This document shows, piece after piece, positions 355-17,996 of a stretch of 64,000 nt of DNA. Origin of the DNA: Candidatus Woesebacteria bacterium (GTDB lineage: Bacteria > Patescibacteriota > Microgenomatia > UBA1400 > PJMF01); NCBI GenBank assembly GCA_050123235.1, contig JASFHL010000003.1, forward strand, positions 50,077-114,076, written 5' to 3'. The notes under the pieces were generated by a model. That model saw only the letters and a list, made by a program, of their open reading frames with translations, made no database searches and was not told the origin of the DNA. A program made the translations under genes and the position numbers. Position 1 is the stretch's first letter, and each line of letters opens with the position of its first letter.

Positions 355-380
355 AACTATTTCGTGTAAGTAAAAATGAT

Positions 381-394
381 GCTCCCCAGGTGGG
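381..394. repeat. 14-bp direct copy of the tRNA-Asn 3' end (candidate att site)
   Basis: gctccccaggtggg identical to 17964..17977 (T-stem 3' strand + acceptor 3' strand + discriminator of tRNA-Asn); GC-rich 14-mer in AT-rich DNA. Confidence 0.4.
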
Positions 395-513
395 TTGCTA
401 AACGGACTAAAGACTGGATATTTAACTTCTTATTTTACTCTGATAAACAGCGATTTGCTTTAAATCATGCTTAAAGAGTAAAAAAATGTTATGGGTTTTT
501 AGTATAAAATTTA

Positions 514-732
514 TTATTTCATAACAACCCACCAGCTTCCGTCTCCTTCAACACAATCTAATTTTCCATCTTGAATCAATTGAATTAATTCACTATCCAT
601 TGAATTACATTTCTGATGTCCTGATTCCACTTCACCACCTCCATCACGGCATCCTTTACAGCAACCCTGTGTTAAAACATTTCCGATATTTTCTCTTGTT
701 CTGGGTTCTCCATATTTTTTTACTAAATCCAT
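514..732 (-). CDS. Cys-rich hypothetical protein (CCKGC...C..C); possibly the 3' portion of a disrupted gene
   Basis: ORF track; reading frame continues upstream in-frame (..SKDTIEAIQGKSTSATFTEQER) before stops; further fragments in other frames at 733..900. Confidence 0.3.
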   Translation of the reverse strand: MDLVKKYGEPRTRENIGNVLTQGCCKGCRDGGGEVESGHQKCNSMDSELIQLIQDGKLDCVEGDGSWWVVMK

Positions 733-900
733 TCTTTCTTGTTCCGTAAAAGTAGCTGAAGTTGATTTTCCTTGAATAGCTTCTATTGTATCCTTAGATG
801 GTTTCCAACCCTGGGAGGCCCATATACTTCAATTGTTCCAGGTTGAACATCTAGTCCCTCATGTGTATGAATAATAGAAACGTTTGGAGAGACTTTATAA
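733..900 (-). pseudogene. frame-disrupted ORF remnants contiguous with 514..732
   Basis: short ORF MFNLEQLKYMGLPGLETI* and an in-frame extension of 514..732 separated by stops/frame change. Confidence 0.25.
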
Positions 901-910
901 CCTTAGTTTA

Positions 911-1126
911 TTATTCAGCATAACTCTCTAAATATCCACACTTGCTACATCTGTAAGTTTTTACTTCTTTATTATTCTTCAACCCCCACCAACCCCATTT
1001 TAAACCTGTTCCCCATTTTTGTTTATCTACAATTTGCAAGTCTGTCCTTGAATCACCAATAAATCCCAACTCCATTTTACCTTTACATTTTGAACATTTT
1101 ATAGTTTTTCTCATATTAACCCTCAT
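911..1126 (-). CDS. small zinc-ribbon protein (two CxxC pairs)
   Basis: CSKCKG...CSKCGY motifs. Confidence 0.5.
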   Translation of the reverse strand: MRVNMRKTIKCSKCKGKMELGFIGDSRTDLQIVDKQKWGTGLKWGWWGLKNNKEVKTYRCSKCGYLESYAE

Positions 1127-1289
1127 GAATTAATTATAGCATAATAAAGAAGACTGATATAACAGTCTTTTTAAATGAGTGCTCCCCTTATTGGACTCGT
1201 TACGGAACGGATATGAATCAAGATTGTTGACTATTAATAAAGAAGATATAAAAATATTTGCAGAAAAAACAAGGAACTTGTTTATTTAA

Positions 1290-1493
1290 TTACTTAATAA
1301 GTTTAAATCTAGGAATTTTCTTTCCATCCACTTCAACCTTCTCTTCAAACATTTTTTTAGGTCTTACCCAGATCTTATCTTTATCATTCATATCTTGGTA
1401 AACTACCATTTCTTCCAAAGTTTCGCTATGCTTAGCTATACCGATAACCTGATAATATTTACCTTGATAGTGCTTATAAGTGCCTAATTTCAT
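1290..1493 (-). CDS. DUF1653-family protein
   Basis: 67 aa, GTYKHYQGKYYQVIG..VVYQ..WVRP..F pattern typical of DUF1653. Confidence 0.6.
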   Translation of the reverse strand: MKLGTYKHYQGKYYQVIGIAKHSETLEEMVVYQDMNDKDKIWVRPKKMFEEKVEVDGKKIPRFKLIK

Positions 1494-1498
1494 AAATT

Positions 1499-1987
1499 TT
1501 AAGCTATCTTTTTAAAAAAATCTATTCTTCCTTCACCTTTAACATAATAATCAGGAATTTTCGCTACTTGTTCATAGTCATTCTCTAAATAAAACAAACG
1601 TGCAGCTTCATAAGATTCAATATCACATGAAAGAACATGGATATAACGCCCACCTCTTTCTTTTACGAATTTTTCAACCTCTTTTAATAATTTAGAAGCC
1701 AAACCTTTTCTCCTATAATCCTGATGAACAGCTAGATAATCTTCATTCATCTCATAGCCACTACTGCCATATTTATTTTCTCTCACACCCATAGCAGCAA
1801 TCACTCTTCCATCGTCTTCTATATACCAATATCGGTGATTCTCAAACTTTAAACTATCTACAGGAGCTTGTTGTACCATTTTCTTTTCTGCTGGTGCCCA
1901 TGTCTGGTCAAAAGCATTAGAACTTGTTAAAAAATCCCCTATATTTTTTGCCTCTTGCTTAGTTTTGGCAATTTTGATATCTAACAT
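1499..1987 (-). CDS. GNAT family N-acetyltransferase
   Basis: acetyl-CoA binding motif region RRKGLASKLL and GNAT fold length. Confidence 0.7.
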   Translation of the reverse strand: MLDIKIAKTKQEAKNIGDFLTSSNAFDQTWAPAEKKMVQQAPVDSLKFENHRYWYIEDDGRVIAAMGVRENKYGSSGYEMNEDYLAVHQDYRRKGLASKLLKEVEKFVKERGGRYIHVLSCDIESYEAARLFYLENDYEQVAKIPDYYVKGEGRIDFFKKIA

Positions 1988-3297
1988 TATCTTTTTAATT
2001 TGATTTTTATTAATCTTTGGATACTACTGACTACAATACTAGCAATTATAACTGAACCAATAGTAAGATTGAAAATATGAAATGTGCCATTTTCAACCAT
2101 GGCACCAGCTGTAATAGCAAGTAAAGCGTATGGTAGTTTAGAGATTAATGCAACTGTTGATAATGTTGTTGCCCTATATTTAGATGCAATTTCTCTATTT
2201 ACTACAATCGAAACCCAAGGGTATGCTAATTGACCACTTACTGCTATCAGGAATAGAGGAATTACTCCTAAATAACCAAGTTTAAAAAAGGCTAACATGA
2301 AACCAGACCCCATTACTAAACTCAAAAAATATAAGCCTCTTTTATCTGAAATATATTTACGATAACTGGGAATAAACTTAACTAAGATTGCTCCGACAAT
2401 GCCAAATAAAGCAAATAGAATAGCTTGCTCTTTATCAAAAAAACCAAAACTAGTTGCCATAGCAGGTTTAATTAAACCCCAACTATATAGATAATCAGCT
2501 CCAAGTAAAACAAAAATAACAACCACAAATGCTTGTAATTGAGGTTTAAATAATTCAACTGTTCCTCTGTAAAGTTGTTTTACATAACTATTCAAAGAAA
2601 ATTTCTCTGTATCTATTTTTGGTTCTGTCAAAAATAGAGAAATAAAAAAAGCTAAAGCATAAGCAAAAGCCCAAGCGTAATGTGGCAATCTAAAATGAAT
2701 GACATAAAATAGCCCGCCAAGCAATGTAGCTGTAATTGCTGATATAGTAGCAATTGTGCCACTAGTAGAAATAACTTTATCGTAAGACTGTTCTTTATTT
2801 CTATCCACTAAAGTATCATATGCCAAAGCTTCTGCAGAACCAGAATATAAAGCCCAACCCAGTTGAGCAAACATAAATGAAATCCATATTTGAGTTAAAG
2901 AGCTAGCTGAAGCAAAACCAAAAATACTTATAGCAGCCAGCAACATTGAAGCTACAATTGTTCTCTTTTTACCTAATAAATCAGATACTGCACCTGAAGG
3001 GACTTCCATAAGCAAACCAAAAGCAAATGCAGAAGCATCAACCCACCCAAGTTGTCCATAAGTCATAAATCTTGTCCAAAAAAATATCCAGTTACCTGCA
3101 ATAAACCACAGATTGTTAAAAGTTGTTAACAAATAAAAAAGGGCAATATTTTTAATCTTAATTTCTGGAAATAAGACACTTTTAACTGGGGGTGGTGTTT
3201 CAATTTGAACGATTTCAGGCACGAAAATATTATACTTTAAATCCTGATTAAGCGTCTTAGTTAAAATTAATAGGAAATATTCATGGTATATAGTCAA
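1987..3297 (-). CDS. MFS transporter
   Basis: 436 aa, ~12 predicted TM helices, MFS-like loop motifs. Confidence 0.7.
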   Translation of the reverse strand: MTIYHEYFLLILTKTLNQDLKYNIFVPEIVQIETPPPVKSVLFPEIKIKNIALFYLLTTFNNLWFIAGNWIFFWTRFMTYGQLGWVDASAFAFGLLMEVPSGAVSDLLGKKRTIVASMLLAAISIFGFASASSLTQIWISFMFAQLGWALYSGSAEALAYDTLVDRNKEQSYDKVISTSGTIATISAITATLLGGLFYVIHFRLPHYAWAFAYALAFFISLFLTEPKIDTEKFSLNSYVKQLYRGTVELFKPQLQAFVVVIFVLLGADYLYSWGLIKPAMATSFGFFDKEQAILFALFGIVGAILVKFIPSYRKYISDKRGLYFLSLVMGSGFMLAFFKLGYLGVIPLFLIAVSGQLAYPWVSIVVNREIASKYRATTLSTVALISKLPYALLAITAGAMVENGTFHIFNLTIGSVIIASIVVSSIQRLIKIKLKR

Positions 3298-3309
3298 TAA
3301 GATGAATAC

Positions 3310-3552
3310 CTAGTTTTTTCTATTTCTTAAATTCCTTTTAGTTAGATCAATTTGTAATCCTTGTAACCCTTGTTGTATTTGAGCTAATAGAGCCTGTGGA
3401 TTCATTCCAGCCTCCGCGGCAAGTTCCTGAAATATCCTCATAACAACAGTTCTATCTTGAGCTGCTTCTGGAAATTCTCTAAAGAATGTAACAACAACTA
3501 ATTCATCTCCTTGTCTTAATTCTTTCAAATGGGCTAAAGTTATTTCTGACAT
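3310..3552 (-). CDS. hypothetical protein
   Basis: ORF track, no recognisable motif. Confidence 0.4.
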   Translation of the reverse strand: MSEITLAHLKELRQGDELVVVTFFREFPEAAQDRTVVMRIFQELAAEAGMNPQALLAQIQQGLQGLQIDLTKRNLRNRKN

Positions 3553-3572
3553 TTTATTCTTTTTTAACCAAA

Positions 3573-3604
3573 AATCTTAGCTTAGTTTTGCTAGAGCTAA
3601 GATT
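3573..3604 (-). terminator. 10-bp perfect-stem hairpin (aatcttagct/agctaagatt) followed by U-run on minus strand
   Basis: seen in sequence; lies between the R-M operon region and gene 3310..3552. Confidence 0.3.
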
Positions 3605-3668
3605 ACTAATATTCAAGAATATATATTATACTATTTTTTTTCTAAAAAACGTGAAAAGGTAGTTAATT

Positions 3669-3842
3669 ATGAAAACAAACTTTACTTGGCTCCCAGGTTC
3701 CCCATTTGCTCTGTACGATATATTCTCTGGAGAGTCTTTAGCGAGGGTAAAAAATCAAATAGAGGTCTTAAACAAAATTTTAACTTCAAAACCTAAATAT
3801 GCAGTCGTAAAGGTAAGTAATGGAGAGTTTGTTAAGCTTTAA
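3669..3842 (+). CDS. small hypothetical ORF (57 aa, below ORF-track cutoff)
   Basis: ATG 3669, stop 3840..3842, MKTNFTWLPGSPFALYDIF...; located just upstream of the hairpin array. Confidence 0.25.
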   Translation: MKTNFTWLPGSPFALYDIFSGESLARVKNQIEVLNKILTSKPKYAVVKVSNGEFVKL

Positions 3843-3852
3843 AATGTCTATC

Positions 3853-4110
3853 ACCTGTGAGTCAGGCTCACATTAAAACCATATTCGCCTGGAGAATATG
3901 GAGTGTATAGAAAACTGTTCCCCAGGGGAACAGTTTTTCCCATTCCGTAGATGGAAGGGTAGAAATTCAATAACTGTGAGCCTGGCTCATAGTTTTCCCT
4001 AAAAGTGTAAGCCTGGCTTACACTTTATTGGTTGAAGCGAGAGCTGTAAGCCAGGCTTATAGCTATTCGCCAGGCGAACAGCTCCTAAAGGGTCTATGCC
4101 AGGCAAGTAC
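3853..4110. repeat. array of at least seven palindromes/hairpins each centred on a CCWGG pentamer
   Basis: 3856-3872 tgtgag-tcagg-ctcaca; 3888-3908; 3911-3937 aaaactgttcccc-a-ggggaacagtttt (perfect); 3974-3992; 4002-4026 aaagtgtaagcc-t-ggcttacacttt (perfect); 4041-4084 compound (gagctgt..acagctc enclosing two CCAGG hairpins); mismatches are G.T on plus strand. Confidence 0.6.
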
Positions 4111-4114
4111 CCTT

Positions 4115-4894
4115 TTACTTTTCAATCTCTTTTACCGCCTCTCTATAAGCACAATAGTCACAATCCTCACCAGCATCAGGAATAGAATCACTATTTAAAC
4201 ATTTATGAGCACTCTTTATAGCTTGTTCAACCCAGCCATCAATTCCCTCATAAGCGATTAAAGTTATATTAAACTCAAGTTTGGCATCAAAAGCTTCTTT
4301 GTCTGTAATTCCATTACAATAGACAAAATAGCCTGTATCAGAAACTTTGTACTCATTTTGCCTTAGTAGCCACTGATACACCTCCATTTGACGCTTATAG
4401 CCTTCTTGCCAGTCCTTATCTAGCTCTGTTATCTCTTCACCCTTAGAAGTTGACTTGTAGTCAACAACAAGATATTCATCTTTAGAGTTGATCCATAAGT
4501 CATCAATGGCACCAAAGATTAATAAGTTAGTAGGCTTATGTAAATATTGAACCCCTACAAAATTTTGCCTCCAGTCGTCTAGCTTCTCATGGGCCACTGG
4601 CTTAGCATCTACCCCATACTTTTCTATCAATGGATGTTGTGTCCCATTAGCCCTATGAACATCAAATTCAAGCTTCAGAAGCTTATCTACGGCACTATTT
4701 AGAGCAAAAGGGAAACCAGGTGGTCTAGATACGCCTAAGCGTCTATCTAAATAAAAACATCTAGGACATTCTAAAAACAGGTCAATCTTAGATCGGCTCA
4801 ACTTAAAGGGTTGCTTAGAGCCTGGTTGGTAACAATATTTTGCTGATCGTTTAGCATTATAGTATTGAGACATAGTTATTTTTCTCCAGTCCAA
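4115..4894 (-). CDS. PD-(D/E)XK nuclease, Cas4/RecB-nuclease-like with 2+2 Cys (possible Fe-S)
   Basis: IDDLW...EYLVVDYKS (D..ExK), QMEVYQWL (QxxxY), N-terminal CPRC and C-terminal CDYC; 19-nt overlap with hsdR. Confidence 0.6.
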
Positions 4895-7800
4895 TCTTTA
4901 GCTAACAACTCTGCTTGCTCTAAGACAATTTTCGTTGCCCCCTCTTGTTTGTCGGGCGGGTACTTATACTTCTTCAACAGTCTTTTTATATAGACCCTAA
5001 GTTTAGCCTGGACACTTTCTTTAATAGTCCAGTCAATCGTGGTGTTCTTGCGAAGCATGTTTACCAACTCTTTGGCCATGGCTTTGAGTGTTTTATCTCC
5101 CAACTCCCTAACGGCACTTTCGTTATTTGCCAGAGCATCATAAAAAGCCACTTCTTCCTCAGATAACCCAAGGTCTTCTCCTTTGTCTCGCTCTTTTTTA
5201 ATCTTTTTAGCTAGCTCTAAAAGCTCTGCAATAACTTGGGCCGCTTCCAAGGTTCTGTTTTGATATTTTCGGATTGTTTCAGCCAGCATGTCAGCAAAGG
5301 AACGTGACATAACTAGATTCTTTTTAGTCATGGTTCTCAGCTCATCGTTCAAAAGCTTTTTCAACAGTTCCAAAGCCACATTCTTATGCTTCATATTTTT
5401 AACTTCAGCTAAAAACTCTTCTGAAAAAATGGAAATGTCTGGGGCTTTAATTCCAGCGGCAGAATAAATGTCAACTACATGGTCTGAAGCTACCGCAGAA
5501 GATACTATCTGCTTAATTGCCACATCATAGTCATCATCAGTTGGACCGCCACCTATAGGCTCCATCTTTACAATCCCACTCCTCACTATCTGGAAAAAGG
5601 AAACCTCATCTCTAATCTTTATTGCCTCTTCATGCGGAACCGCTAAAGAAAATGCCTTAGAGAGCTCAGAAACGGCTTTTAAGTATCGTTTCTTGCCATC
5701 TTTAAGCCCTAATATATAGTTTGTCGCTCCAGAGATAGTTTGAGTTCTTTCTGCTGGTGTACCTGTCAAATATTTCTTGTAGTCAAAGCCGTGATACATG
5801 CTCTTAACCACTTCGTATTTCTCAAGCATTAAAGAAACTGCTTTATCTTGAGGAATCGCTGTTTCTTGCCTGTCACTTTCAGAGTAATAAGATAGGGCTT
5901 CTTTTAATTGAGGAGCAATGCCAATGTAGTCAACGATTAAGCCACCCTGTTTGTCTTTATAAACCCTGTTCACCCGAGCAATGGCCTGCATCAAACCATG
6001 GCCTTGCATTGGCTTATCTATATACATGGTGTGAAGACAGGGAACATCAAAACCCGTTAACCACATATCTCTCACAATCACCAGCTTCATTTCATCATCT
6101 GGGTTTTTCATTCTCAAGGCCAACTCATCTAAAACGTGTTTTGGCCTGATATGGGGCTGAAAATTCAAGGGGTCAGAAGCAGAACCAGTCATCACTACTT
6201 TAACCACGCCTTTTTTATCATCATCGCTGTGCCAATTGGGTCTGAGTTTGACTATCTCGTTATAAAGGTCAACGGCAATTCTTCTACTCATGGCCACTAT
6301 CATGCCCTTGCCCTCAATAGCGCTTTGTCTATTTTCAAAATGTTCTACCAAGTCACGAGCCACCAGACTAATTCTTTTCTCTGAACCCACCATTGCTTCA
6401 AGCCTGGCCCACTTACTCTTGAGCTTTTCTTTGCGCTCTACTTCTTCACCCTCAGTTAACTCTTCGAACTCAGGGTCAATCTTAGGCTGTTCTTCTTTTT
6501 TCAACTCGATTCTTGCCAGCCTAGCCTCATAGTAGATAGGTACTGTGGCTTTATCCTCAACTGCTCGGGTTACATCATATACATCAACGTATTCACCAAA
6601 AACAGCTCGTGTATTTCTGTCTGTTAACTCAACTGGAGTACCAGTAAAGCCAATAAACGAAGCATTGGGAAGAGCATCTCGCATGTGGCGAGCAAAGCCT
6701 TTGATAAATTCATACTGGCTTCTATGTGCCTCATCAGCAATAACAACAATGTTTTTCCTGTCAGAAAGTTGTGGATACGACTTATGTCCGTTCTGAGGTA
6801 AAAACTTCTGTATGGTCGTAAATACCACACCACCAGAGGCTACTCTTAATAGTTCTTGTAGTTCATCTCTATCATTGGCTTGCTTAGGAGCCTGTCTGAG
6901 TAAATCGGAACATCTAGAAAAGGTTCCGAAAAGCTGATTATCTAAGTCATTCCTGTCAGTCAAAACAACCAAGGTCGGATTATTCAGAGCCTGAATTACC
7001 TTACCAGCATAAAAAGTCATGGTTAAACTCTTACCAGAGCCCTGAGTGTGCCAAACTACACCCGCTCTTCTATTTCCCTTTTCCTTGGTAGCATTAAAGG
7101 TGCTTTCAATGGCTTTATTGGTAGCAAAGTATTGATGATAAGCGGCGGCCTTCTTGACTGTCTTTTCACCATCAGTTTCAAAAACAATAAAGTTGTTGAT
7201 TAAATCCAAGAATCTAGTCTTATCAAAAATACCTTTAAGCAAAACCTCCAGTTGAGGGAACGCATTAGGGGCCAATTCTTCACCGTCAACTGTTCGCCAG
7301 CGAGTAAACCATTCAATACTAGCGCTTATTGTCCCAACTTTTGCTTCCAAACCATCACTAATAATTGAGAGCTCGTTATAAGTAAACAAAGAGGGAATAC
7401 CTTGCTTGTAGGTTTGAATCTGGTTAAAAGCACTCTTTACTGTAGCCTTCTCATCGCCTGGATTTTTCAACTCAATCACCACAACAGGCAAACCATTTAC
7501 AAAGACTACTACATCTGGGCGTCTGTTTACATTATTCTCAATAACCGTATACTGGTTAACTGCCAAAAAGTCATTTTTCTCAATATTTTTAAAGTCAACC
7601 AATTTCACCTTATCACCAGCCACCGAGCCATCCTCTCGCATATATTCAACATCTACACCATCCCTCATGTATGAGTGAAATATCTTGTTGTTAAGCACAA
7701 GACTAGGCGTAGCATTAGTAGCTTGCAAAACCTTTTTAACAGCTTCTTCTTTAGCATCTGCTGGAATGTTGGGATTAAATTGGTCGATAGCAGAACGAAG

Positions 7801-7956
7801 CCTACCTTCTAACACCACTTCAGAATAGTTCTTGCGCTCTGGTCGTTCACCATCTGGAGGCGGAGCAATTTCTGGACCACCAATAACAGTAAATCCTAGC
7901 TCCTCAAGCCATTCTAGTGTTGCTAATTCTAGGTCTGATTCTGTGTATTTAGTCAT
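4876..7956 (-). CDS. hsdR: type I restriction enzyme R subunit
   Basis: 1026 aa; helicase motif [12 protein letters not shown] and DEAH ([10 protein letters not shown]); N-terminal nuclease region. Confidence 0.9.
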
Positions 7957-7957
7957 A

Positions 7958-10399
7958 TTAATTTATATTTACCTTATCTGTTATTTTAATAAACGATTGA
8001 ATGTGCTTATCTAGTTCAGATATAGCAGATGGTATTTCCTTATCTGCATGTAGCAAATTTGAGTAATTGCAATATTTATATAAACTAGTTAACTTTTTTA
8101 AGTCGTCATCTGATAGTTTGCTCAGTTTGCTCCTGTTAGTTACCAAGTTATTAGTAACATCCTCAAATTTGTCTTCTTTGTTCCACATCAGCAAGTCATT
8201 CTTAATGAATCTTTCGATTGCGAGGCGTAATAACTGCCCATATTTAAGAGCCAGGGCTTCCATTTTAAGAGTTCCTTTGCTTACTTCATCTGATATTTCT
8301 TTATAACAACCCTTAACTTCACTTAATACATCAAATCCAGGGTCAACAAAGATAAATCCTCCTCCAAATTCTTCTCTGTTTTTTAAGACTCCAAACCTAT
8401 TTGAGTCTGGCGAAATACATTTAGATAGGTATTTATAAAATAGTGGATGGTGAGTAAAAATAAATACCTGACTAAAATCCTTAGTTTGAGAATGAATAAG
8501 CTCAGCTAAAATTTTCAAATTCGGAGCATCTAGACTCGTAATTGGGTCATCAAAAACAAGTATCTTTGCATCCTTTGATTCAAGCTTTTTGTTTAAAGCA
8601 AAAAAGAAAGCTATTGATATTATTTGTCTTTCTCCTTCAGACAACCCTTTTTTAAACTCTCTTTTATTATTACCTTTATCAATAACTTCAAAAGAAAATG
8701 GATATTCTTTAGTGTTTGGAGCTGGTTTAATATGTTTCAGTGAAAACGCCAGTTGAAAATTTTTTAGAATCGAATCCATCTCCTTGATAATAGAAGCTGG
8801 AATTTTTTTGGCTAAGTTGTTATCTAGTTCTTGCTCAAAGACTTTAATTTCTGATTGGAGAGCTTCCTTGTTCGAGTTAACCTTATCAAACTCTTTTATC
8901 TTGTCCGTTTTTTTATCAGAAATAAATGTTATCTTTTGAATAATGTCTGTGTTCTTTGATTCTAGTGATTGTATTTCTCCTGTTATTTTTTCTTCGCTTT
9001 TATATTTATCTTGGAAATTTTTTATTAAAGTATTTTTTAACTTTCTGAGTTCTTCGAGAGAATCAGCAAATAGTTTTAAGTCAGAAGTACCTTTAAGAGT
9101 GTTTAGAATATATCTCTTCTTTTTATCTTTATCTGCAATATCTATATTTTTTAACTCTTGAGCATACTTTTTAGCCTGCTCTGTTTGATCTGCAAAACTA
9201 TTTATCTGAGTGTCCTTTTTATGATATTTTTGTTTCTCTTCAAGAGAATATATGCCTTCAATCTTGAAGTCTTGATATAGTTTTTCTAAATTGGAAAAAA
9301 TTTCGTCTCTCCTTGTAAACAACTGAGCGATTGTGCTTTTTATTTTCTCTAGCTGTTCTACAAACAAGTCAATATCATCTATGTATTTTTTCTTTTGCTC
9401 CTCGTAAGATTTATCAAAAATCTGTTTGTAATAATTTATTACCTTAGTTGCGCCACTCAAGGACTGAGCACAAAGGGGACAGTCTTTTTCTTGAGGATTA
9501 AGTATCCTCTGATAGTTAGAATCTTTTTCTAGAAAACTTTTGTGTTTCTGAAAATGTGTTTCCAGAGCCTTATCAGTTTTAACTTCAGCTTTTTGTTTGA
9601 TGCTTCTATTAAATAACTCCTTAATTCCAGGTTCATCTAATAAATCTAGGTTATAACTTATCTCATCAATCTGTTTAATATTTTTAATGAAATCTATTTT
9701 CTTTAATAAACCTCGTATGGTTGCTAGCTTATTCTCAATTTCTTTTTGTTGTTTTTTTAGACTCTTTATTTCTTTTGCCAGTGAAGCTTGTTTTTTGTTT
9801 TTATAATTTTCGAATAATACTCTCTCTTCCTGAGTAAACGTGCTTTGTAATGCCAGCTTATTTGCTTCTAGAAATAACTTTAGTTCTTCCTTTTTTTCTG
9901 CTATCTGCTTTTTAAGTACATTAGCTTCGCTATCCAAATTGATAACCAAGTTGCCTGCATTTTGAGAATGTTGGCCTTTAAGGTTGCTTCTGGTTCCGTG
10001 TGTATGAATATTTTTGTTTACAAAGTCTATATCAAAAAATAGAATCGGGTTATTTTCCGTGGTTTGCTTATCCCAAGCTTGCTTTTGATAGGTAAAAACA
10101 GTTTGTTTTTTAGTTTTATTTATATGAACTTTCCCGTCTGGAGATTTATTTGACTTTGCCTCAATTTCTTCTGCTTCCAGAACAACCATCTCTGGATGTT
10201 TTTCTTCAATAGTTTCTACCCCAACCAAATCTTTTAATATTTCGCATACAGTTGTTTTTCCTGAACCATTTTCGCCAAAGAATAAGTTGAAGGGGCCAAA
10301 AACACATTCGTCAAGTTTTGCATTTTTACAGAAAGCATCCCATTTAAAATCTGTAAATGATTTATATTTAGTGATTTTATTTATCTTTTTTATCTTCAT
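7958..10399 (-). CDS. rloC: RloC-like anticodon-nuclease-family ATPase (PrrC homologue with Rad50-like coiled-coil/zinc hook)
   Basis: 813 aa; N-terminal Walker [10 protein letters not shown], long coiled-coil with central CPLC zinc-hook-like CxxC, distal [11 protein letters not shown] (Walker B/D-loop), C-terminal extra domain; embedded between hsdR and hsdS. Confidence 0.55.
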
Positions 10400-10400
10400 G

Positions 10401-11612
10401 TCAATTTACTCTCAACTTCCCACTCATTAGTCTTGGTAATAAAGAGCCACGTATTGATGATAATTTTTCGTTTTCCAAGGCATTTATTTTAATTTGCTGA
10501 AATATGGGTTCCATCGAATTGTGAAACTTTCGTATCAATGCTGTTTGAGGTGATTTTAATTTGTAGTTTCGAATAGCATCAATTTGAACTCGTTGTCTCC
10601 CAGAGCTTCCGACCATGCTTTTAATTGCATGTTGTCGAAATTGCTCATTCCTTACTAAGAAATAAACATATTCTCTATACTGATTGTCGTTAGGTCTGAA
10701 AACTATATATTCCGTGGAACCAAAAGCTAGCTCACCAGCTTCTAAGAAGCTTACCAGGGCACTTTTGCCATTCTCTAAGCAGGGGGTGATTCTGGCCATT
10801 AGTGAATCACCGTTCCTGAATTTTGAACCTCCTTTATAAGGTTTGCTAATCTGAGAGGAAACCCACATTCCTTGTTCTGGTAAATCTTTCATCTCAACAT
10901 ATTTGGTAGTTTCTCCTTTTTTTAAACTCTCTCTAGGATTCAATTCAATAAGACTTTCTAGTGCTATCGCGCCTTCCAAGGCTTCTGAATCCACAAACCA
11001 ATTCTTAAACAGAGCCTTACCCATTTCCTCCAGGGTCTGATTCGTCTTTCGATTTAATTCAATTTTTTCATCGAGAGAGCCCAAAACAGAAGCTATCTTT
11101 AATTGCTCATCATAAGACGGTAACAAAACCCTTACTTTTCTGAACTCCGACTGTCTTATGCCTTTTACAACTGAGCCAGTAGCTCTAGAAACAAGCTCTT
11201 GTTGTCCTATGTATGAAAGCAAGTAATATTTAAGAAAAGTATTGTCTAGTTCACCGTCTTTTCCCCGTAAAGTTAACAGCCTTTGGGCTAAACCTATATT
11301 TGCAGTATCAAGCTGAGCAACTTCACCTAAGGGAGCTTCTGTAGTTATTACAACGTCTCCTTTTTTTGGCAATCCTCTTGTCATCCAATTTTTCCAAGTT
11401 TCTTTGGTAATATACTCAGGATTGGAATAATCTATCCTTCCCGCCTTAACAACCTTTGCAGTCACAAGAGGTATCCCTGAATTTGTTTTTGGAGGTGTCT
11501 TGCCTCTGTAGTCAATAATTTTATCCAAGACATCAACGGATTTTACTATTCTCCAACTTTGGGGAATCTCACCAATTTCTGTTTGTTTGTAGTTAGTTTG
11601 TTGTTTAGTCAT
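10401..11612 (-). CDS. hsdS: type I restriction-modification specificity subunit
   Basis: 403 aa, two target-recognition domains separated by conserved central/terminal coiled repeats (LPSYDEQLKIASVLGSLDEKIELN ... LLPRLMSGKL). Confidence 0.85.
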   Translation of the reverse strand: MTKQQTNYKQTEIGEIPQSWRIVKSVDVLDKIIDYRGKTPPKTNSGIPLVTAKVVKAGRIDYSNPEYITKETWKNWMTRGLPKKGDVVITTEAPLGEVAQLDTANIGLAQRLLTLRGKDGELDNTFLKYYLLSYIGQQELVSRATGSVVKGIRQSEFRKVRVLLPSYDEQLKIASVLGSLDEKIELNRKTNQTLEEMGKALFKNWFVDSEALEGAIALESLIELNPRESLKKGETTKYVEMKDLPEQGMWVSSQISKPYKGGSKFRNGDSLMARITPCLENGKSALVSFLEAGELAFGSTEYIVFRPNDNQYREYVYFLVRNEQFRQHAIKSMVGSSGRQRVQIDAIRNYKLKSPQTALIRKFHNSMEPIFQQIKINALENEKLSSIRGSLLPRLMSGKLRVN

Positions 11613-12360
11613 TTCTGCTTATTAAGTCATAGGCTAGACTTGCCAATGATATGTAATGAATAGCCAAGTTCTTATCTAATTTTGTTGCTGGAGTATGTGA
11701 TTTTTCATTTCTTAAAAACTGTATAGCCATGTGTAAAAATTTAATCCCTTCGAAAAAATCCCTCTCTGCGTCATCTTTTGGCAAATGTCCAAATATTTTT
11801 TGGTAGTTACTTTTGTTAAAAGCATCTGTAGCTTTTTCTTTACCTGTAATATCTTTTAGTTTTTTTCTTACCACTTTGTAGGCTTCTTCAACCGCATTAA
11901 AATAATGACCATCGTTTAGTAAATTTTGAACATGATTAAAAATCTCATCTTGAAGCGTAATAGTGATATTCCCATTTTTGAAACTTGCTTTAAGCGCAGC
12001 CTCTTCTTTAATTGTTGTTTTACCAAGCAATCTTTGGGCAATCTTATTACCAGCATTTACTCTTGCCTTTGGAAAATCGTCTCTGTTGAGATTTTCTACT
12101 AAAATTTGAGTTTCAATATAAGAAATCAGTTTAAGAATGCTTTTGGCAACAGTGGTGTCATCGGCAGTGGACCAAAAACCCCGCATTCTATTAGCCTTTG
12201 AACCGCTAGCATAGTTATATTTCTGGCTATAAATTTTAATCTTCAGGTCATCTCTAAAAAACTCTCCCATTGTCCTGTCTGAGAAATTCAAAACATATCC
12301 ACTCTCCATCTGAAAAAGCTTTTCTAAGATTTGTTTTTCGTTTGTCGTTAAATTAGCCAT
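11605..12360 (-). CDS. HEPN-like (Rx4H motif RNEKSH) Abi_C/TIGR02391-like protein embedded in R-M operon
   Basis: C-terminal helical region with FLRNEKSHTP; 8-nt overlap with hsdS start and 2-nt gap to hsdM stop. Confidence 0.45.
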   Translation of the reverse strand: MANLTTNEKQILEKLFQMESGYVLNFSDRTMGEFFRDDLKIKIYSQKYNYASGSKANRMRGFWSTADDTTVAKSILKLISYIETQILVENLNRDDFPKARVNAGNKIAQRLLGKTTIKEEAALKASFKNGNITITLQDEIFNHVQNLLNDGHYFNAVEEAYKVVRKKLKDITGKEKATDAFNKSNYQKIFGHLPKDDAERDFFEGIKFLHMAIQFLRNEKSHTPATKLDKNLAIHYISLASLAYDLISRND

Positions 12361-12362
12361 AT

Positions 12363-13901
12363 TTATAAATCAAATCCTACTTTTGCTAAGTTCTCTTTAA
12401 TTTTCTTTTCTAACTCTTTAGACTCTTTGAATTGTTGACTTAACTCATTTGTGAGTCTTTTCATTTTCTCCTCAAACACCTCGTCATCTTCCATCTCAAA
12501 ATCTGTACCTACATAACGACCAGGAGTTAACACAAAACCATTCTTTTCTACTTCTTCAGTTTTGGCAGCCTTACAAAAACCCTTAACATCTTCATACTTG
12601 CCATTCTTATTTCTCCAGTTGTGATAAGTGTCAGCAATTCTTTGTAGCTCTTCTTCTGTCAACTCTCTATGCCTTCTATCTATCATCTTGCCTAATTGGC
12701 GAGCATCAATAAAAAGAATTTCATCGTGGCGGTCACGGAATTTGTGGTTATATCTATCTCTACTTACAAACCACAAAGAAGCGGGAATGCCTGTTGTGTA
12801 AAAGAGTTTATCTGGCAAGGCCACAATACAGTCAACCAAACCAGCCTTGATTAAACTTTTTCTAATCTTTCCCTCATTAGAAGTATTGGAAGATAAGGCC
12901 CCATTGGCCATGACAAACCCAGCTATACCTTCAGGGGACAAATGATGAATAAAATGCTGAATCCAAGCATAGTTGGCATTTCCTGTTGGAGGCGCACCAT
13001 ATTTCCAGCGCACATCGTCTCTTAGCCTCTCTCCACCCCAATCACTATCATTAAAAGGAGGATTAGCCAAAATAAAGTCTGCTTTTAGGTCCTTGTGTTG
13101 GTCATTATGGAAACTGTCTGCATCGGAAGTACCAAGGTTACCCTCAATTCCTCTAATAGCCAGATTCATCTTACAAAGGCGCCAGGTAGTAGGGTTGCTC
13201 TCTTGCCCATAAACTGAAATATCGCCAGTCTTTCCTCCATGCTCTTCTACAAACTTCTCACTCTGCACAAACATACCTCCAGAACCACAACAAGGATCAT
13301 AAACTCTGCCCTTGTAAGGCTCTATCATCTGAACCAGAAGTTTAACTACTGAGGCTGGAGTATAGAACTCACCACCACCCTTACCTTCTGCACTAGCGAA
13401 TCTCCCAATAAAATACTCATAAACTCTGCCCAATATGTCTTTAACCTTAGCTTCTTTATCTCCTAAACCTAGAGAGCTGAAAATATCGATAATCTCTCCT
13501 AAGCGCTGTTTGTTAAGGTCTGGTCTGGCAAATCTTTTTGGAAGTACGCCTTTGAGAGTAGGGTTGTCCTTCTCAATGGCTATCATGGCATCATCAACAA
13601 GCTTACCTATCTCTGGTTTCTTAGCATTTTGCTTTAAATAATCCCAACGAGCCTTTTCTGGTACCCAGAAAGCATTTCTAGCTTTGTAAGCATCTTTATC
13701 TTCCCATTCACCATCAAAAGCGTCTTTGTCAGCCTTAATTGCTTGGTAGATATCTTCAAAAGAGTCTGAAATGTATTTGAGAAATATCAAACCCAAAACT
13801 ACATGCTTATACTCGGCTGGGTCCATATTGTTACGCATTTTATCTGCGGCGGCCCACAACTTTTTTTCAAAGCCAAGATTGGCTGTGGTTCTTTTTGTCA
13901 T
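12363..13901 (-). CDS. hsdM: type I R-M DNA methyltransferase subunit (N6-adenine)
   Basis: NPPF motif (ILANPPFN), AdoMet motif, conserved HsdM N-terminus [16 protein letters not shown]; ORF-track start 13991 is a 30-aa over-extension that runs into the upstream HTH gene, so start set at 13901. Confidence 0.85.
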
Positions 13902-13929
13902 AATTTTCTTAATTCTCTTTTTATTATTT

Positions 13930-14109
13930 TCAACTATTTTCTTTAAGATATTTTTTAATATCTTCTTGGCGATAACGTCTATCACCAACACCCTTACGAC
14001 TTCCGATTCTGACTGCCTTTAATTTACCTTGATTATCCCAACGTCTTAGCGTTTCTGTGTTTACTTTTAATAATTCAGCTGCTTCTTTTATTGTTAGTAA
14101 TTTCTTCAT
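13930..14109 (-). CDS. excisionase/MerR-like HTH DNA-binding protein (59 aa, below ORF-track cutoff)
   Basis: [36 protein letters not shown]...; paralogous to 15793..16017; first gene of the R-M operon. Confidence 0.5.
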
Positions 14110-14202
14110 ATCAGTGATTCCTCATTGATTAGTGAATTCCATTTAATTATACATCCCTTCTTGTGTATTTGAAATGATAACAGTAAAATATAACTACAAA
14201 AT

Positions 14203-14308
14203 CAGAGCTGCGAAACTATAGCCTTTGGCGTGTCTTGAACCCAAAAAGGGGCGACTCTCGTAGGGTTCAAGGCTTCGCAGCTCTGAATACTGGGGGTCGT
14301 CCCTTTTT
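14203..14308 (+). ncRNA. candidate structured RNA/DNA element: nested stems plus pseudoknot-type pairing
   Basis: P1 14203-14214/14274-14285 (12 bp perfect), P2 14233-14242/14263-14272, loop 14243-14255 complementary to 14296-14308 (13 bp with one G.U, wobble only valid for plus-strand RNA). Confidence 0.3.
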
Positions 14309-14338
14309 ATTAATTTTGGATGGCCCAGAAAGGTAATC

Positions 14339-14674
14339 ATGGGCCTATTTTTTAAATCTGACGAAGAAAAGAAAAAAGAAGAGAAAGCAAAGCTTGAAGC
14401 AGTTCAAAAGCAAACTAATAAACTACTTCAAGGCTTAGGCTTAGACTTTGACAACTATTCTGAAGACAATTTAGAAGAAAAAAACAAAAACGATATTACA
14501 GCTATTGCTAAAACCACGGGTATAGGTGCAGCTGGAGAGCTTCTCTCTTCATTTAATATGTCCAACTATGAAAAAATCGCTACAACTCACCTAGGCACGC
14601 TTATAAAACAAAATTGGATCATCATCCGTCAACTCGAGTTAATCACTAGATTTCTTAATAAAACAGAAAAATAA
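14339..14674 (+). CDS. hypothetical protein
   Basis: ORF track; AAAGG SD upstream. Confidence 0.4.
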   Translation: MGLFFKSDEEKKKEEKAKLEAVQKQTNKLLQGLGLDFDNYSEDNLEEKNKNDITAIAKTTGIGAAGELLSSFNMSNYEKIATTHLGTLIKQNWIIIRQLELITRFLNKTEK

Positions 14675-14838
14675 ATGTAACTTTACTTGACATCGCAATG
14701 TTTCTTGAATAACCTAAGAATAGGTATAGTTTCAGTAAAAGGTCTAGGTCTAGCTATTGTTGCTGGGCCTTTTTGTTTCTAGGCATAGTGGAGGGTGAGA
14801 TTCCCACCGAGGTTTGATTTTATCTCTGGAGGGAATCT

Positions 14839-15585
14839 ATGTTATATAACAAATCAAATAAAAGGCCTGTCGGTTGGTGCTTAATTCCACCCGAAGTTAT
14901 GGCAAGAAATGATTTATCTAATAGTGAAAAGCTTTTACTAGGTAGAATTAATGGTCTAAGGAATGAGAAAGGTTACTGCTATGCAACTAACAGATGGTTG
15001 GGAGAACAAATCGGATTACAAGAAGGAACTATTTCCAATATTATTAGTTCTTTAGTAAGAAAAGGTTTAATTGATAGAAAAATCATAAGAGATGAAAATA
15101 AGGAAGTTATCGAAAGGCAACTTTACCCTATTGAAATTACACAATGGATATCTGCTAAAACAAAGCTAACTCAATCTAGCCACGAAATAATTGATACCCC
15201 TGTCCATGAAAACGTTGAAGGTAGTATTAGAGATTTTAGTAATAGATATAATAATAATGGTAAGGCAAAGCCTTACACAAAAAGTGTTTTTGAACATATA
15301 GAAGAAAATCCTAGTATATACGAAGAAGTTAATACTGCTATCGACTACTACATTAATAACTACCAATGCCTTATAAGGAAAATGCACCCAAGAATTACTT
15401 TGGATCAATGGTCATCGGTTAAATATGGATTTGAGCTTATTGCTGGAGAATACACTCCAAGCATAGAAGAGTGGGAGAAAATGATAAACAAATGGTTTGA
15501 TATGAATATCCGTACAGATTACAACATCATCCATTTTAGTACGGGAGATTTTATTAAAAATAGGTATTTTGAAGAGTGTTACTAG
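14839..15585 (+). CDS. HTH_36-type winged-helix protein (plasmid/phage replication-initiator-like)
   Basis: N-terminal LSNSEKLLLGRINGL...GYCYATNRWLGEQIGLQEGTISNIISSLVRKGLIDR pattern; GGAGGG SD. Confidence 0.5.
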   Translation: MLYNKSNKRPVGWCLIPPEVMARNDLSNSEKLLLGRINGLRNEKGYCYATNRWLGEQIGLQEGTISNIISSLVRKGLIDRKIIRDENKEVIERQLYPIEITQWISAKTKLTQSSHEIIDTPVHENVEGSIRDFSNRYNNNGKAKPYTKSVFEHIEENPSIYEEVNTAIDYYINNYQCLIRKMHPRITLDQWSSVKYGFELIAGEYTPSIEEWEKMINKWFDMNIRTDYNIIHFSTGDFIKNRYFEECY

Positions 15586-15792
15586 AAACGTAGTATTTTA
15601 ACGAACTTTACTCATTAATGAGTCTTTTAAAAGAAGAGTCAAAACGCTGATTTTAAGGCTAAAAGCAAGAGTATCCTTGTTTATGAATTAATCACGAATC
15701 AATTTTGATAACCCAGCTTATGTCAATCCTTAAATCATAAGGAGAGATATAACAAAGAAAAATGCGTCAAATATGAGAGACCCATCCAGTTT

Positions 15793-16017
15793 TTAAGATG
15801 ATTTCTGCGAATCCTGAGCACCCCCATCTACGCCAGATTCATCGATAAATATCTTAAGATCAGACTCAGAGAAACGATATTCACCCTTACCACTATCTCC
15901 AGGGAGCTTAATAAACTTTATTTTCCCATCACGACACCAACGTCTAACCGTTTCTGGATTGACGTTAAACATTACTGCTACATCTTCGATAGTTTTGTTG
16001 TAGGTAAGTTCACTCAT
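15793..16017 (-). CDS. excisionase-family HTH DNA-binding protein
   Basis: VAVMFNVNPETVRRWCRDGKIKFIKLPG typical excisionase/MerR-type HTH. Confidence 0.55.
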   Translation of the reverse strand: MSELTYNKTIEDVAVMFNVNPETVRRWCRDGKIKFIKLPGDSGKGEYRFSESDLKIFIDESGVDGGAQDSQKSS

Positions 16018-16064
16018 ATATTAGTGATTGTAGTACTTAGTGGCACTAAAGTCAATTTAGTTGC

Positions 16065-16093
16065 TTGACATTGTATATAATATTATGTAATAT
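16065..16093 (+). promoter_or_regulatory. sigma-70-like promoter TTGACA-17-TAATAT
   Basis: seen in sequence upstream of recombinase gene group. Confidence 0.4.
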
Positions 16094-16137
16094 GGTAGTA
16101 TAAACGTGTATGCAGGAGTACTAATCACATGATTAAA

Positions 16138-16302
16138 CCAACCATAAAAGACAATAAAGACTGGATGGGCTTAGTAGCTCAAAAACTAGCCGAAATAAGA
16201 CTTTCTGAAGTAGGTTTTCGTTTTGTACCTGGAGTATTCCCTGCTTGGAGGCGTGTTAGAAGATTTTTAGAGGCAAAAGCCAGAATTATTAATTCAAACT
16301 AA
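16138..16302 (+). CDS. small hypothetical ORF (54 aa)
   Basis: ATG shortly after predicted TSS; no motif. Confidence 0.2.
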   Translation, partial: PTIKDNKDWMGLVAQKLAEIRLSEVGFRFVPGVFPAWRRVRRFLEAKARIINSN

Positions 16303-16329
16303 ATATTTTATAGAAAGGAGTAATAAAGT

Positions 16330-16494
16330 ATGAAAAAAATAATAGGTTATTCTCGCATATCAAGTATAAAACAGTTATCTGACAATCAACTAGCTAAAAG
16401 TCAAAAAGAACTGGTTGCTGAATATGTGAATAAAAATAGATGCAAATTAATAGTGACGAATAACGATAGATTTTGCAGAAAGGGAATGAAATGA
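16330..16494 (+). pseudogene. serine-recombinase N-terminal fragment (54 aa) directly upstream of full-length recombinase
   Basis: MKKIIGYSRISSIKQ.. mirrors catalytic N-terminus (xxGYxRVSTxxQ); stop overlaps recombinase ATG (ATGA). Confidence 0.4.
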
Positions 16495-17996
16495 AAAAAG
16501 CAGTTGTCTATGCCCGAGTTTCAGACCCAGGACAAGTTGGAGGTTTGTCACTCGATGTTCAAAAGGAAAAGTGTGCAGAATGGGCAAAGAAAAATAAGTA
16601 TCAAGTAGTCGGGGTATATGAGGATGGTGGCAAAACAGGAACTAAAACAGTAGGTCGTGAAGGTTTAGAAGATATGATTATTCAATGTCAAGAAGAAAGC
16701 ATAAATGTGGCTTTGGTGATAGATACAGACAGAATTGCTAGAAACGAATTTGATCATTATAAAATCGTACACATTCTTAGGGAAAGTAACACTCAACTAG
16801 TAGCAATAAACCAACCAATGATAGATGATTCTGCAGAAGGTAAGCTCATGGAAGGCATGTTAGCCAGTATTAATGCCTTTTATAGTCGTCTAACAGGTCG
16901 CAAGGTTAAAAAAAGTCTAGAGAAGAAGCTCAAGGATGGTGATTGGCCTGGTTGGGCTCCTCTTGGTTATAAGAATGTTAATCTAGGCTCAGAAGACAAA
17001 CCCCATCGTGTTATTCAAGTTGATGAGGATAAGAGTTCCCTCATTAGTGAGTTATTTAAACTTTACTCTACGGGTAGCTATTCGGTTGACGAGCTAGTAG
17101 ATCATATAAACAAGAGGGGTCTAAGAAGCAAAACAGGCAAAAAAATGTATCGCAGTATTGTTTATGAGATGCTTAAAAACCCTTTCTATATCAGCTGGAT
17201 GAAATATAACGGTCAAACTTATAAAGGAAAACATAAAGCCTTAACCACACCAGAAATATTTGAAACCTGCCAGAAAATCATGGATCGGCACAACCATAAT
17301 GCCTGCAGAAGAAGAAAGTACAAGTGGCTTTTAAATGGTTTTGCTTATTGCCAAGAGTGTAATGCAAGACTTTATGGAGATAGGGTTAATGCGAAAAATA
17401 AGGCCTATTATCACGGCAACTCTAGAAGTGGTTGTAGTCACTACATTCCTTTAGATGAGCTTGAAGACGCTGTAGCAGACGAATTTAAGAAGATCGAGTT
17501 ATCAAAAGAGTTTATCCAAGCAGTTTTAGATAAAGCTAGAGAGCTTATCAAACAGTCTAGAGACTCCAGAACATCTGAGATAAACGGCGTGAGAAACGCT
17601 ATCAAAAAATTAGAAGATAAACGCAATATTCTTGAAGATAATCTCTTGGACCAAACCATTGATAAAGAGTCATTCAAGCGTAAACATCAAGACCTTAATT
17701 TTCAAATTCAAAACTTAGAGAATGATATAGCTACTATTGAAAACCAGAGAGGCTTTGATGTTGATGTGATAGAGGAGGTCTTAAAGCTCACCAACAACAT
17801 CTATGAGGTCTATTGTGATGCTGGCTTTGAAGCCAAGCGCCATTACTTAGCTATTTTCTTTGAGAGATTTGATATTAAAGACAAAAAGGTGGCAAAAGTT
17901 ACCTACACACCACTCTTTAAAAAGCTACTTGACTCGAGGAAAGTTAGAGTAAGTAGTAACTGGCTCCCCAGGTGGGACTCGAACCCACAACCTTGA
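16491..17996 (+). CDS. large serine recombinase (resolvase/invertase N-domain + recombinase domain + zinc ribbon + coiled coil)
   Basis: MKKAVVYARVSDPGQ catalytic motif, CQECNARLYGD zinc ribbon; likely start ATG 16491 (track start is TTG at 16473); 3' end overlaps tRNA-Asn. Confidence 0.85.
   Translation: MKKAVVYARVSDPGQVGGLSLDVQKEKCAEWAKKNKYQVVGVYEDGGKTGTKTVGREGLEDMIIQCQEESINVALVIDTDRIARNEFDHYKIVHILRESNTQLVAINQPMIDDSAEGKLMEGMLASINAFYSRLTGRKVKKSLEKKLKDGDWPGWAPLGYKNVNLGSEDKPHRVIQVDEDKSSLISELFKLYSTGSYSVDELVDHINKRGLRSKTGKKMYRSIVYEMLKNPFYISWMKYNGQTYKGKHKALTTPEIFETCQKIMDRHNHNACRRRKYKWLLNGFAYCQECNARLYGDRVNAKNKAYYHGNSRSGCSHYIPLDELEDAVADEFKKIELSKEFIQAVLDKARELIKQSRDSRTSEINGVRNAIKKLEDKRNILEDNLLDQTIDKESFKRKHQDLNFQIQNLENDIATIENQRGFDVDVIEEVLKLTNNIYEVYCDAGFEAKRHYLAIFFERFDIKDKKVAKVTYTPLFKKLLDSRKVRVSSNWLPRWDSNPQP

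Follow-up and report, generated by a model that had tools for sequence, protein, structure and literature searches.

The window analysed here is the whole 64,000-nucleotide stretch of contig JASFHL010000003.1, from a Candidatus Woesebacteria genome of the Patescibacteriota. In its left part lies an intact tRNA-Asn gene and, adjoining it, a group of genes that probably forms an integrative element inserted at that tRNA. The gene nearest to the tRNA encodes a large serine recombinase (LSR); behind it follow small helix-turn-helix genes and a type I restriction-modification (R-M) operon (Table 1). Farther out, at position 381, lies a 14-nt copy of the 3' part of the tRNA gene, which an earlier interpretation made without database searches (the sequence-only reading) had taken as the outer border of a 17.6-kb island. 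Comparison with related elements places the border at 3687 instead, and points to an attachment site that lies within the integrase gene itself.

The LSR carries the Resolvase, Recombinase and Zn_ribbon_recom domains (PF00239, 1.8e-29; PF07508, 5.4e-13; PF13408, 1.3e-6). It is about 25% identical to phage LSRs, and its solved relatives are close at the catalytic domain only; the N-terminal domain matches the TP901-1 integrase structure, and matches to the NCBIfam models CcrB and XisF fall under the cut-offs of these models. It is the sole recombinase that Pfam identifies in 1..18035, with no tyrosine integrase in that interval. As had been noticed from the letters alone, the gene ends inside tRNA-Asn: its 3' end runs 36 nt into the tRNA gene on the opposite strand, and the last eight residues, RWDSNPQP, are an antisense translation of the tRNA. 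The LSR family numbers 211 homologues at E <= 0.001. Among its best 120 members, an antisense T-arm peptide of the form ..WLPx.DSN.. makes up the C-terminal end in at least 35, and about 40 others stop a few residues past ..WL.

Sister integrases were obtained from a one-genome-per-species scan (loci L004 and L005) and from a protein search (L012, 87% identical); locus L008 is an extension of L004. The three sister integrases show 84–87% identity, and each ends inside a tRNA-Asn gene on the opposite strand. When the four genomes are aligned at the integrase–tRNA junction, or right attachment junction (attR), the element side is conserved up to ...AAAGTTAGAGTAAGTAG-NNNN-TGGCTCCCC (also given as ...GTAAGTAG-NNNN-TGGCTCCC). 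Beyond this core the body of the tRNA varies by host, with compensatory changes in the T stem.

The opposite junction (attL) was located through the far ends of the sister elements, which are readable in L012 and L004/L008. In both, a short coding piece stands at the far end in integrase orientation (L012 35..184, 76% identity; L008 13939..13784, 87%), and its counterpart in the window can be called as a 57-amino-acid open reading frame (ORF) at 3669..3842 (MKTNFTWLPGSPFALYDIF...). A second, more distant copy of the piece is present at L008 15684..15514, and a relic of it in locus L014. In the junction alignment, identity starts at GCTCCC(A/T)GGTTCCCCATTTG, and the left flanks are unrelated between hosts. 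On account of this alignment of sister far ends, together with the integrase–tRNA junction, attL is placed at 3687-3694, where ...ACT is followed by TGGCTCCC and then AGGTTCC.., and attR at 17961-17968, where ...AAC is followed by TGGCTCCC and then CAGGTGG... In the window, attL and attR share a core of 8 bp, of which 6 bp (GCTCCC) are common to three elements; the flanks are otherwise unrelated, and a core of 6–8 bp is what a serine integrase leaves. So delimited, the elements are 14,274 bp (window, 3687..17968), 11,439 bp (L012) and 17,279 bp (L004/L008) long. The comparisons make it probable that 3687..17968 is an integrative element of a Patescibacteria-specific LSR clade that inserts at the extreme 3' end of tRNA-Asn.

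The sequence-only reading is thereby both corrected and upheld. Its proposal of an LSR-driven integrative island at tRNA-Asn with an R-M cluster is supported by the occurrence of the integrase family at tRNA-Asn in four other genomes, with differing cargo, and its caveat that serine integrases leave only short identity is borne out by the 6–8 bp core. Its further remark that the repeat might date from an earlier event agrees with the most likely reading of the 14-mer. Position 381 does not hold as the left border of a 17.6-kb island, as the sister comparison puts attL 3.3 kb inside it, and the 14-bp repeat gives way as att core of the LSR element to the shorter core at 3687.

Several observations tie the coding piece to the integrase. 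Over 50 codons, the window and L008 copies differ by 20 synonymous and 6 non-synonymous codon changes, and other pairs of copies by 15–19 synonymous and 5–14 non-synonymous; judged by these differences, the 48-codon piece is evolving as coding sequence. A family hidden Markov model (HMM) of the piece has a single match in the window, beginning at 3663 (E 4e-31). Among 1.84 billion representative proteins 15 homologues were found, 14 of them short ORFs, and in each of these 14 the piece forms the C-terminus behind unrelated N-termini of varying length. In the proteins P0363 and P0370 the piece continues the reading frame of a typical integrase C-end, as in ..RHYLRFFFEGIYIKDKRIARVVEAPLFSTLRRQEKVIIRSNWLP followed directly by TSQFTLYKIF... 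On the contigs of these two proteins (L017 and L016, respectively) a truncated older integrase is joined to the far-end arm of a newer element, and in L017 the integrase of that newer element (61% identity) follows 9 kb downstream. Joining 16473..17968 to 3695..3842 in the window yields an open frame of 547 codons that ends in ..SSNWLPGSPFALYDIFSGESLARVKNQIEVLNKILTSKPKYAVVKVSNGEFVKL. The integrated ORF is identical to this frame for 499 residues, after which the antisense tail begins. The core occupies codons 497-499, so that comparison, rather than an observed circular form, places the attachment site of the element (attP) inside the integrase gene.

The following course of integration can be proposed. 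attP would consist of a P arm on the integrase side, GCTCCC and a P' arm, within codons ~485-510 of the integrase gene, and the target site (attB) of the acceptor end of the tRNA and its downstream flank. The integrase would bind attP and attB, cut at a central dinucleotide inside GCTCCC and exchange the half-sites; CT, TC and CC are the candidates for the crossover, because GC is palindromic, as inferred from the known LSR mechanism. The tRNA would be kept intact, with the P arm supplying its last bases (including CCA) and a new trailer. Integration would strip the integrase gene of its last 48 codons, which would be left at attL, 14.3 kb away, and would add the eight-residue antisense tail; excision would restore the 547-amino-acid gene.

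The tRNA-Asn locus of related genomes carries other insertions and their remains. The closest host relative found (L013; RpoD 86%) has the same upstream synteny and, at the same tRNA-Asn, a 33%-identical LSR with another type I R-M system. Searches for an empty site through the 133-amino-acid neighbour and RpoD led to L003, which lacks the synteny, to L013, occupied by its other LSR element, and to relics in L014 and L015. In L014 (11765-13360; also in L015) the tRNA-Asn gene has no adjoining integrase, and its flank keeps 17–20 nt of the integrase-side arm (shuffle p < 0.001), for which the L018 integrase arm is the best match; the relic of the piece lies 1.4 kb away. From these remnants L014 is recognisable as a decayed element that has lost its integrase and kept both ends. 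L019 holds a further attL beside a PD-(D/E)XK nuclease gene and an hsdR-like gene. Relics at the L014, L017 and L019 loci therefore indicate that insertions pile up at tRNA-Asn and decay in place. The target tRNA-Asn of L012 (11470-11700) is interrupted after the GTTA of its anticodon loop by structured-looking sequence, and ARAGORN misses the gene. Group I introns at position 35/36 have been described for tRNA-Asn of Patescibacteria (PMC13011429), and the interruption fits this description. At L008 15350-15369, inside a 319-amino-acid ORF of the older outer segment, an 11-nt and a 9-nt match with a one-base offset to the 5' end and upstream flank of the L004 tRNA-Asn is probably due to chance.

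A number of findings weigh against the proposed element and its mechanism. Neither an empty attB nor a circular attP junction was found among the relatives and collections scanned, and a full-length 547-amino-acid integrase of this LSR subfamily is absent from the databases searched; the contiguous forms in L016 and L017 are junctions beside truncated older integrases, not free elements. The nearest relative has an RpoD identity of only 86% and an occupied tRNA-Asn site, and the far end of L005 lies beyond the sequence examined. Neither clear inverted-repeat symmetry nor a consistent centre emerged when the reconstructed attP and attB were scanned for symmetry. BLASTP detects no similarity between the piece and the longer C-terminal tails ('class 1') of other LSR family members, and to the left of the L019 attL stands the C-end of another recombinase clade. 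Sequence gives no explanation for the 14-mer, nothing beside 381 resembling any arm of the integrase family. In separate searches, viral contigs scanned with the integrase and the reconstructed attP pattern gave no matches, and a short BLAST search for an inverted-repeat partner (P' arm) of the integrase-side arm found nothing but the 14-mer.

The window contains just two copies of the 14-mer, GCTCCCCAGGTGGG, each on the plus strand (381..394 and 17963..17976), and no third copy exists in the 64 kb at up to two mismatches; the direct repeat reported earlier is thus confirmed. It corresponds to nucleotides 60-73 of tRNA-Asn and takes in the 3' strands of both the T stem and the acceptor stem, the discriminator and the first C of CCA, but not the terminal CA. 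In 7 of 300 Markov simulations (~2%), some stretch of the 75-nt tRNA matched the 64 kb, on either strand, over 14 nt or more, and the expectation with independent and identically distributed bases is 0.018, in agreement with the previous estimate of ~0.01; the ~2% figure is driven mostly by A+T-rich parts of the tRNA. The chance expectation is 1.3e-5 for the G+C-rich GCTCCCCAGGTGGG itself and 1.5e-4 for any direct 14-mer in the last 20 nt of the tRNA. Because the expectation for a G+C-rich, 3'-terminal word is so low, the repeat is genuine sequence history rather than noise.

Similarity at 381 is limited to the 14 nt, and the DNA around them resembles neither the body of the tRNA nor the P arm nor the other attL flank. 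Two candidate identities for the neighbouring DNA, 381-480 as a decayed full tRNA copy and the left flank as an integrase-side arm or attL flank, were rejected in shuffle tests (p = 0.5-0.8). The peptide that follows the 14-mer (LPRWVAKRTKDW..) was also considered as a relic of a 'class 2' C-terminal tail (W[DY]D[FY]RT.[ND]W). A small-database BLASTP comparison looked suggestive, the HMM of the 'class 2' tail alone did not place the 381 site among its top window matches, DNA comparison of the site with L018 and L010 was not significant, and the candidate was dropped.

Between the 14-mer and attL lie 3.3 kb (segment A, 395-3686) with six small genes and no recombinase. The tetranucleotide distance of this segment to host DNA is 0.259, compared with 0.180 +/- 0.020 (maximum 0.227) for 46 host chunks of the same size, and it falls inside the range of the element's own chunks (0.23-0.35). 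Upstream of the 72-amino-acid ORF (514..732), the minus strand of 733-910 reads like the rest of a longer gene broken by a frameshift (..IHTHEGLDVQPGTIEVYGPP.. then ..WKPSKDTIEAIQGK..), which suggests a pseudogene inside the segment. The ORF to the left of the 14-mer (7-354) encodes the C-terminus of a SoFic-like defence protein of the Fic-domain type, including an HTH_17-like tail. This ORF stands outside the island, and the wider region therefore looks like a defence neighbourhood.

Other accounts of the two borders have their own support. The 57-amino-acid ORF might be a small gene in its own right, at the cargo edge, instead of a part of the integrase, in which case the true attL would be elsewhere. 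It has its own ATG in the window, its database homologues are called as short proteins and the C-terminal tails of other members of the LSR family show no similarity to it. Such a gene is hardly credible, however, given that conservation begins precisely with the LP codons of the core and includes neither a start codon nor an N-terminus, and that the sequence to the left is unrelated between hosts; moreover, the piece always shares the reading frame of the core and the orientation of the integrase, and is fused to integrase C-ends in P0363 and P0370. It is also very unlikely that 381..17976 is one 17.6-kb element with the 14-bp direct repeat as the att core of its recombinase. The great improbability of an exact 14-nt repeat of the tRNA 3' part by chance would favour it, as would the composition of 395-3686, atypical like the rest of the island. 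Nevertheless, both sister elements with a readable far end stop at the conserved coding piece with its 6-bp core, the sister loci have no tRNA repeat of 12 nt or more in the DNA examined, and family HMM and sequence comparison detect neither the piece nor P'-like sequence beside the 381 copy, whereas an intact piece stands at 3687, where the attL of the family is expected. The interval 381..17976 is at most a composite of a 3.3-kb outer remnant and the intact 14.3-kb element.

The 14-mer might instead be a coincidence, and 395-3686 unremarkable host DNA that was already present downstream of tRNA-Asn when the 14.3-kb element inserted. Of random 64-kb sequences, ~2% match the tRNA somewhere over 14 nt or more, and the similarity at 381 ends at 14 nt. 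The genes of segment A are ordinary (GNAT, MFS, DUF1653) and oriented as the host genes to the right of the tRNA, and the host flank of L012 includes a DUF1653 gene. Coincidence is nonetheless improbable in view of the expectation of ~1e-5 to 1e-4 for a G+C-rich, 3'-terminal, direct 14-mer, of a tetranucleotide distance beyond that of all 46 host chunks, and of the relics of earlier insertions that are common at the hotspot (the second copy in L008, L014 and L017). Since such relics are so common at tRNA-Asn, the 14-mer is probably a relic of some tRNA-linked event. It would represent a displaced tRNA end, left by a previous insertion with its crossover deeper in the tRNA or with a longer identity block. 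Segment A could be host DNA or a leftover of an older island; that it is what remains of the very insert marked by the 14-mer is a serious possibility, if one that we would not quite favour.

Table 1. Features of the tRNA-Asn locus and of the predicted element, by position in the window
Feature	Position	Strand	Basis and remarks
14-nt exact copy of part of tRNA-Asn	381..394	+	Direct repeat of 17963-17976; outside the integrase-defined element
Segment A, six small genes (72 aa, DUF6487, DUF1653, GNAT, MFS, 80 aa)	395..3686	-	Pfam
attL core TGGCTCCC	3687..3694	+	Junction alignment; same as attR core; GCTCCC common to sister elements
Displaced integrase 3' piece (P' arm), 48 codons and stop	3695..3842	+	Sister homologues, codon test, HMM; in frame with core
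About 8 palindromes, 23-27 nt, CCWGG centres	3853..4117		Just inside attL
PD-(D/E)XK (Cas4-like) nuclease	4115..4894	-	Pfam, PADLOC; start overlaps hsdR end
Type I restriction subunit HsdR	4876..7956	-	Pfam; PADLOC REase_I, 1167 bits, whole length
813-aa AAA_13/SMC-like ATPase (PADLOC candidate PDC-S06)	7958..10399	-	AAA_13 9.5e-26; between hsdR and hsdS
Type I specificity subunit HsdS	10401..11612	-	PADLOC Specificity_I 1.2e-98
TIGR02391 (Hypoth_Ymh) protein	11605..12360	-	Pfam, NCBIfam
Type I methyltransferase HsdM	12363..13991	-	PADLOC MTase_I 1.3e-232
HTH_17/MerR-type small DNA-binding protein	13930..14109	-	Pfam; 80% in L004/L008, 69% in L005
111-aa ORF	14339..14674	+	No family match in Pfam, PADLOC or NCBIfam
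HTH_36 protein (replication-initiator-like helix-turn-helix)	14839..15585	+	Pfam
HTH_17 protein (excisionase-type), conserved integration module	15793..16017	-	Pfam; 73% in L012, 62% in L004
Conserved 57-aa ORF upstream of integrase	16129..16302	+	55-69% identity in L004, L005 and L012
54-aa ORF overlapping integrase start	16330..16494	+	Weak IS607-type match; 39% in L005 and L012
Large serine recombinase, integrated form, 507 aa	16473..17996	+	Resolvase, Recombinase, Zn_ribbon_recom
attR core TGGCTCCC	17961..17968	+	attR alignment; tRNA 3' end, GGGAGCCA on the other strand
tRNA-Asn(GTT)	17961..18035	-	Intact; ARAGORN, Rfam tRNA 63.9 bits; putative integration target (attB, B arm)

The cargo of the element includes a type I R-M system of which HsdR, HsdS and HsdM are all present and intact. 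No phage or conjugation genes are found in the element, and its composition is distinct from that of the host, as shown by the tetranucleotide distances of its chunks. Pfam agrees with the sequence-only reading on the two small HTH genes, both HTH_17, and on the HTH_36 gene. It is blank for the ORF that had been called a resolvase fragment (16330..16494), to which a weak IS607-transposase match alone can be assigned (E 4.6e-4). Equally, the label of anticodon nuclease given to the ATPase encoded between hsdR and hsdS is not confirmed: the protein is AAA_13 by Pfam and PDC-S06 by PADLOC, PADLOC lists PDC-S06, mad3, LmuB and AriA and no PrrC at E <= 0.001, and no anticodon-nuclease family is among its NCBIfam matches. 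PrrC and RloC resemble it in that their ATPase gene likewise lies between hsd genes and has an ABC/AAA_13-type domain, but a match to a PrrC- or RloC-specific model is absent here. None of the small genes beside the integrase gene (the two HTH_17 genes and the conserved short ORFs) can be assigned by sequence as a recombination directionality factor.

The PD-(D/E)XK nuclease gene adjoins R-M cargo in L005, L008 and L019 and stands at the end of R-M-type operons in all cases examined. A search with this nuclease returned 8000 matches, the best 120 clusters of which are at least 74% identical and come mostly from metagenomes of the candidate phyla radiation (CPR). It was discarded as a marker of the element end, since it is too widespread and since its translational coupling to another gene in L005 shows that it does not come last. 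Between the stop codons of this gene and of the displaced piece lies the array of CCWGG-centred palindromes, such as AACTGTGAGCCTGGCTCATAGTT and AAAACTGTTCCCCAGGGGAACAGTTTT; terminators, protein-binding sites or an origin are possibilities for its function.

In the sister elements the cargo differs. L008 carries a Shedu-type SduA gene (5278-6417) inside a near-identical type I R-M operon, along with an ArsP/DsbD/thioredoxin/ArsR block, and L012 (1955-5598) carries an OLD-family ATPase-TOPRIM gene and a UvrD helicase gene, Gabija-like in appearance. The other sister cargo is a multi-gene operon ending in the same PD-(D/E)XK nuclease. The varied defence cargo thus indicates that the element family shuttles defence genes.

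Two features of the element are unusual for serine integrases, namely the use of a tRNA 3' end as a target in a manner that leaves the tRNA intact, and the location of the attachment site inside the integrase gene. LSR elements and prophages such as phiC31, Bxb1, TP901-1, A118, SPbeta and the Ccr system of SCCmec share the Resolvase/Recombinase/Zn_ribbon_recom architecture, a short attL/attR core and an integrase gene at the element end. Here, in contrast, the target is a tRNA 3' end, attP lies inside the integrase ORF, whose C-terminus is swapped, and the host belongs to the Patescibacteria. A large survey of LSRs from isolate genomes never mentions tRNA (PMC10083194). Islander-type tRNA islands, which use a tyrosine integrase, likewise lie on the 3' side of a tRNA that is regenerated and has the integrase beside it. 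The 14-mer at 381 resembles the displaced tRNA fragment that forms a direct repeat in such islands, but its position is 3.3 kb outside the attL that the comparison defines. The present integrase is of the serine type, and its attL has only 6–8 bp in common with the tRNA. The filamentous phage phiRSM reportedly targets a tRNA-Ser gene, and we know of no intragenic attP in this phage. Its integration and excision are ascribed, in a paper that cites the original work, to a resolvase-like serine recombinase (Askora et al. 2011, ref 22 in PMC7192596). As far as that account goes, phiRSM likewise relies on a serine-family enzyme for both steps; the phiRSM enzyme is a small, resolvase-type one, belonging to a filamentous phage.

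For an attP within the integrase gene, the sole described parallel is provided by the 'suicidal' tyrosine integrases of the SSV1 type, in which attP lies in the integrase gene, the target is a tRNA and the parts of the gene come to lie at opposite ends of the element, and which were called exclusive to archaea in a 2021 review (PMC8371274). The attachment site within the integrase gene, the tRNA target and the partitioning of the gene are alike in the present element. The SSV1-type enzymes, on the other hand, are archaeal tyrosine integrases whose gene is divided into two large parts; here the enzyme is a bacterial serine integrase that loses 48 of 547 codons and keeps its catalytic and DNA-binding domains together in a single ORF. 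The element behaves like the 'suicidal' class in the location of attP alone and is not a member of it. A wider view can be offered tentatively, as a suggestion that we would at present rather doubt than endorse: among bacterial serine recombinases, the clade would be the counterpart of the 'suicidal' integrases of archaea, its 48-residue domain would act as a state switch and repeated insertions would reshuffle defence islands. The circular form would then encode an integration-competent 547-amino-acid enzyme and the integrated form a truncated one with altered or lost activity. Each new insertion would set a fresh copy of the piece beside an older integrase gene, and repeated events at one tRNA would build and reshuffle the islands.

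Integrative elements of CPR/Patescibacteria are almost undescribed, and full-text literature searches, the coverage of which was incomplete, found no description of elements such as these in Patescibacteria. The occurrence at one tRNA-Asn locus, in five genomes, of related LSR elements with differing defence cargo suggests a route for the exchange of immunity genes between tiny genomes. If the 48-residue domain affects activity or directionality, it would constitute a built-in switch that might be of use in engineering integrases. In annotation, a family ORF with the ending ..WLPx.DSN.. is to be read as an integration artefact, and 'hypothetical proteins' of 50–60 amino acids that end in ..KV.NG.F.KL mark the other end of an element.

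Elsewhere in the window, ARAGORN calls a 70-nt tRNA-Leu(AAG) at 32475-32544. Leucine tRNAs are expected to have a long variable arm, and since the call also fails to reach the Rfam tRNA gathering score it is doubtful and probably a false positive. Two patches, at 33900-36500 and 44400-45900, have a G+C content of 52–73% in a genome of ~33% G+C; they have no Rfam match and are not rRNA. The first encodes a 716-amino-acid right-handed beta-helix/NosD-like protein (34335..36485) and the second contains a 379-amino-acid ORF without a Pfam match (44576..45715). These patches may be recent foreign DNA or an assembly chimera.

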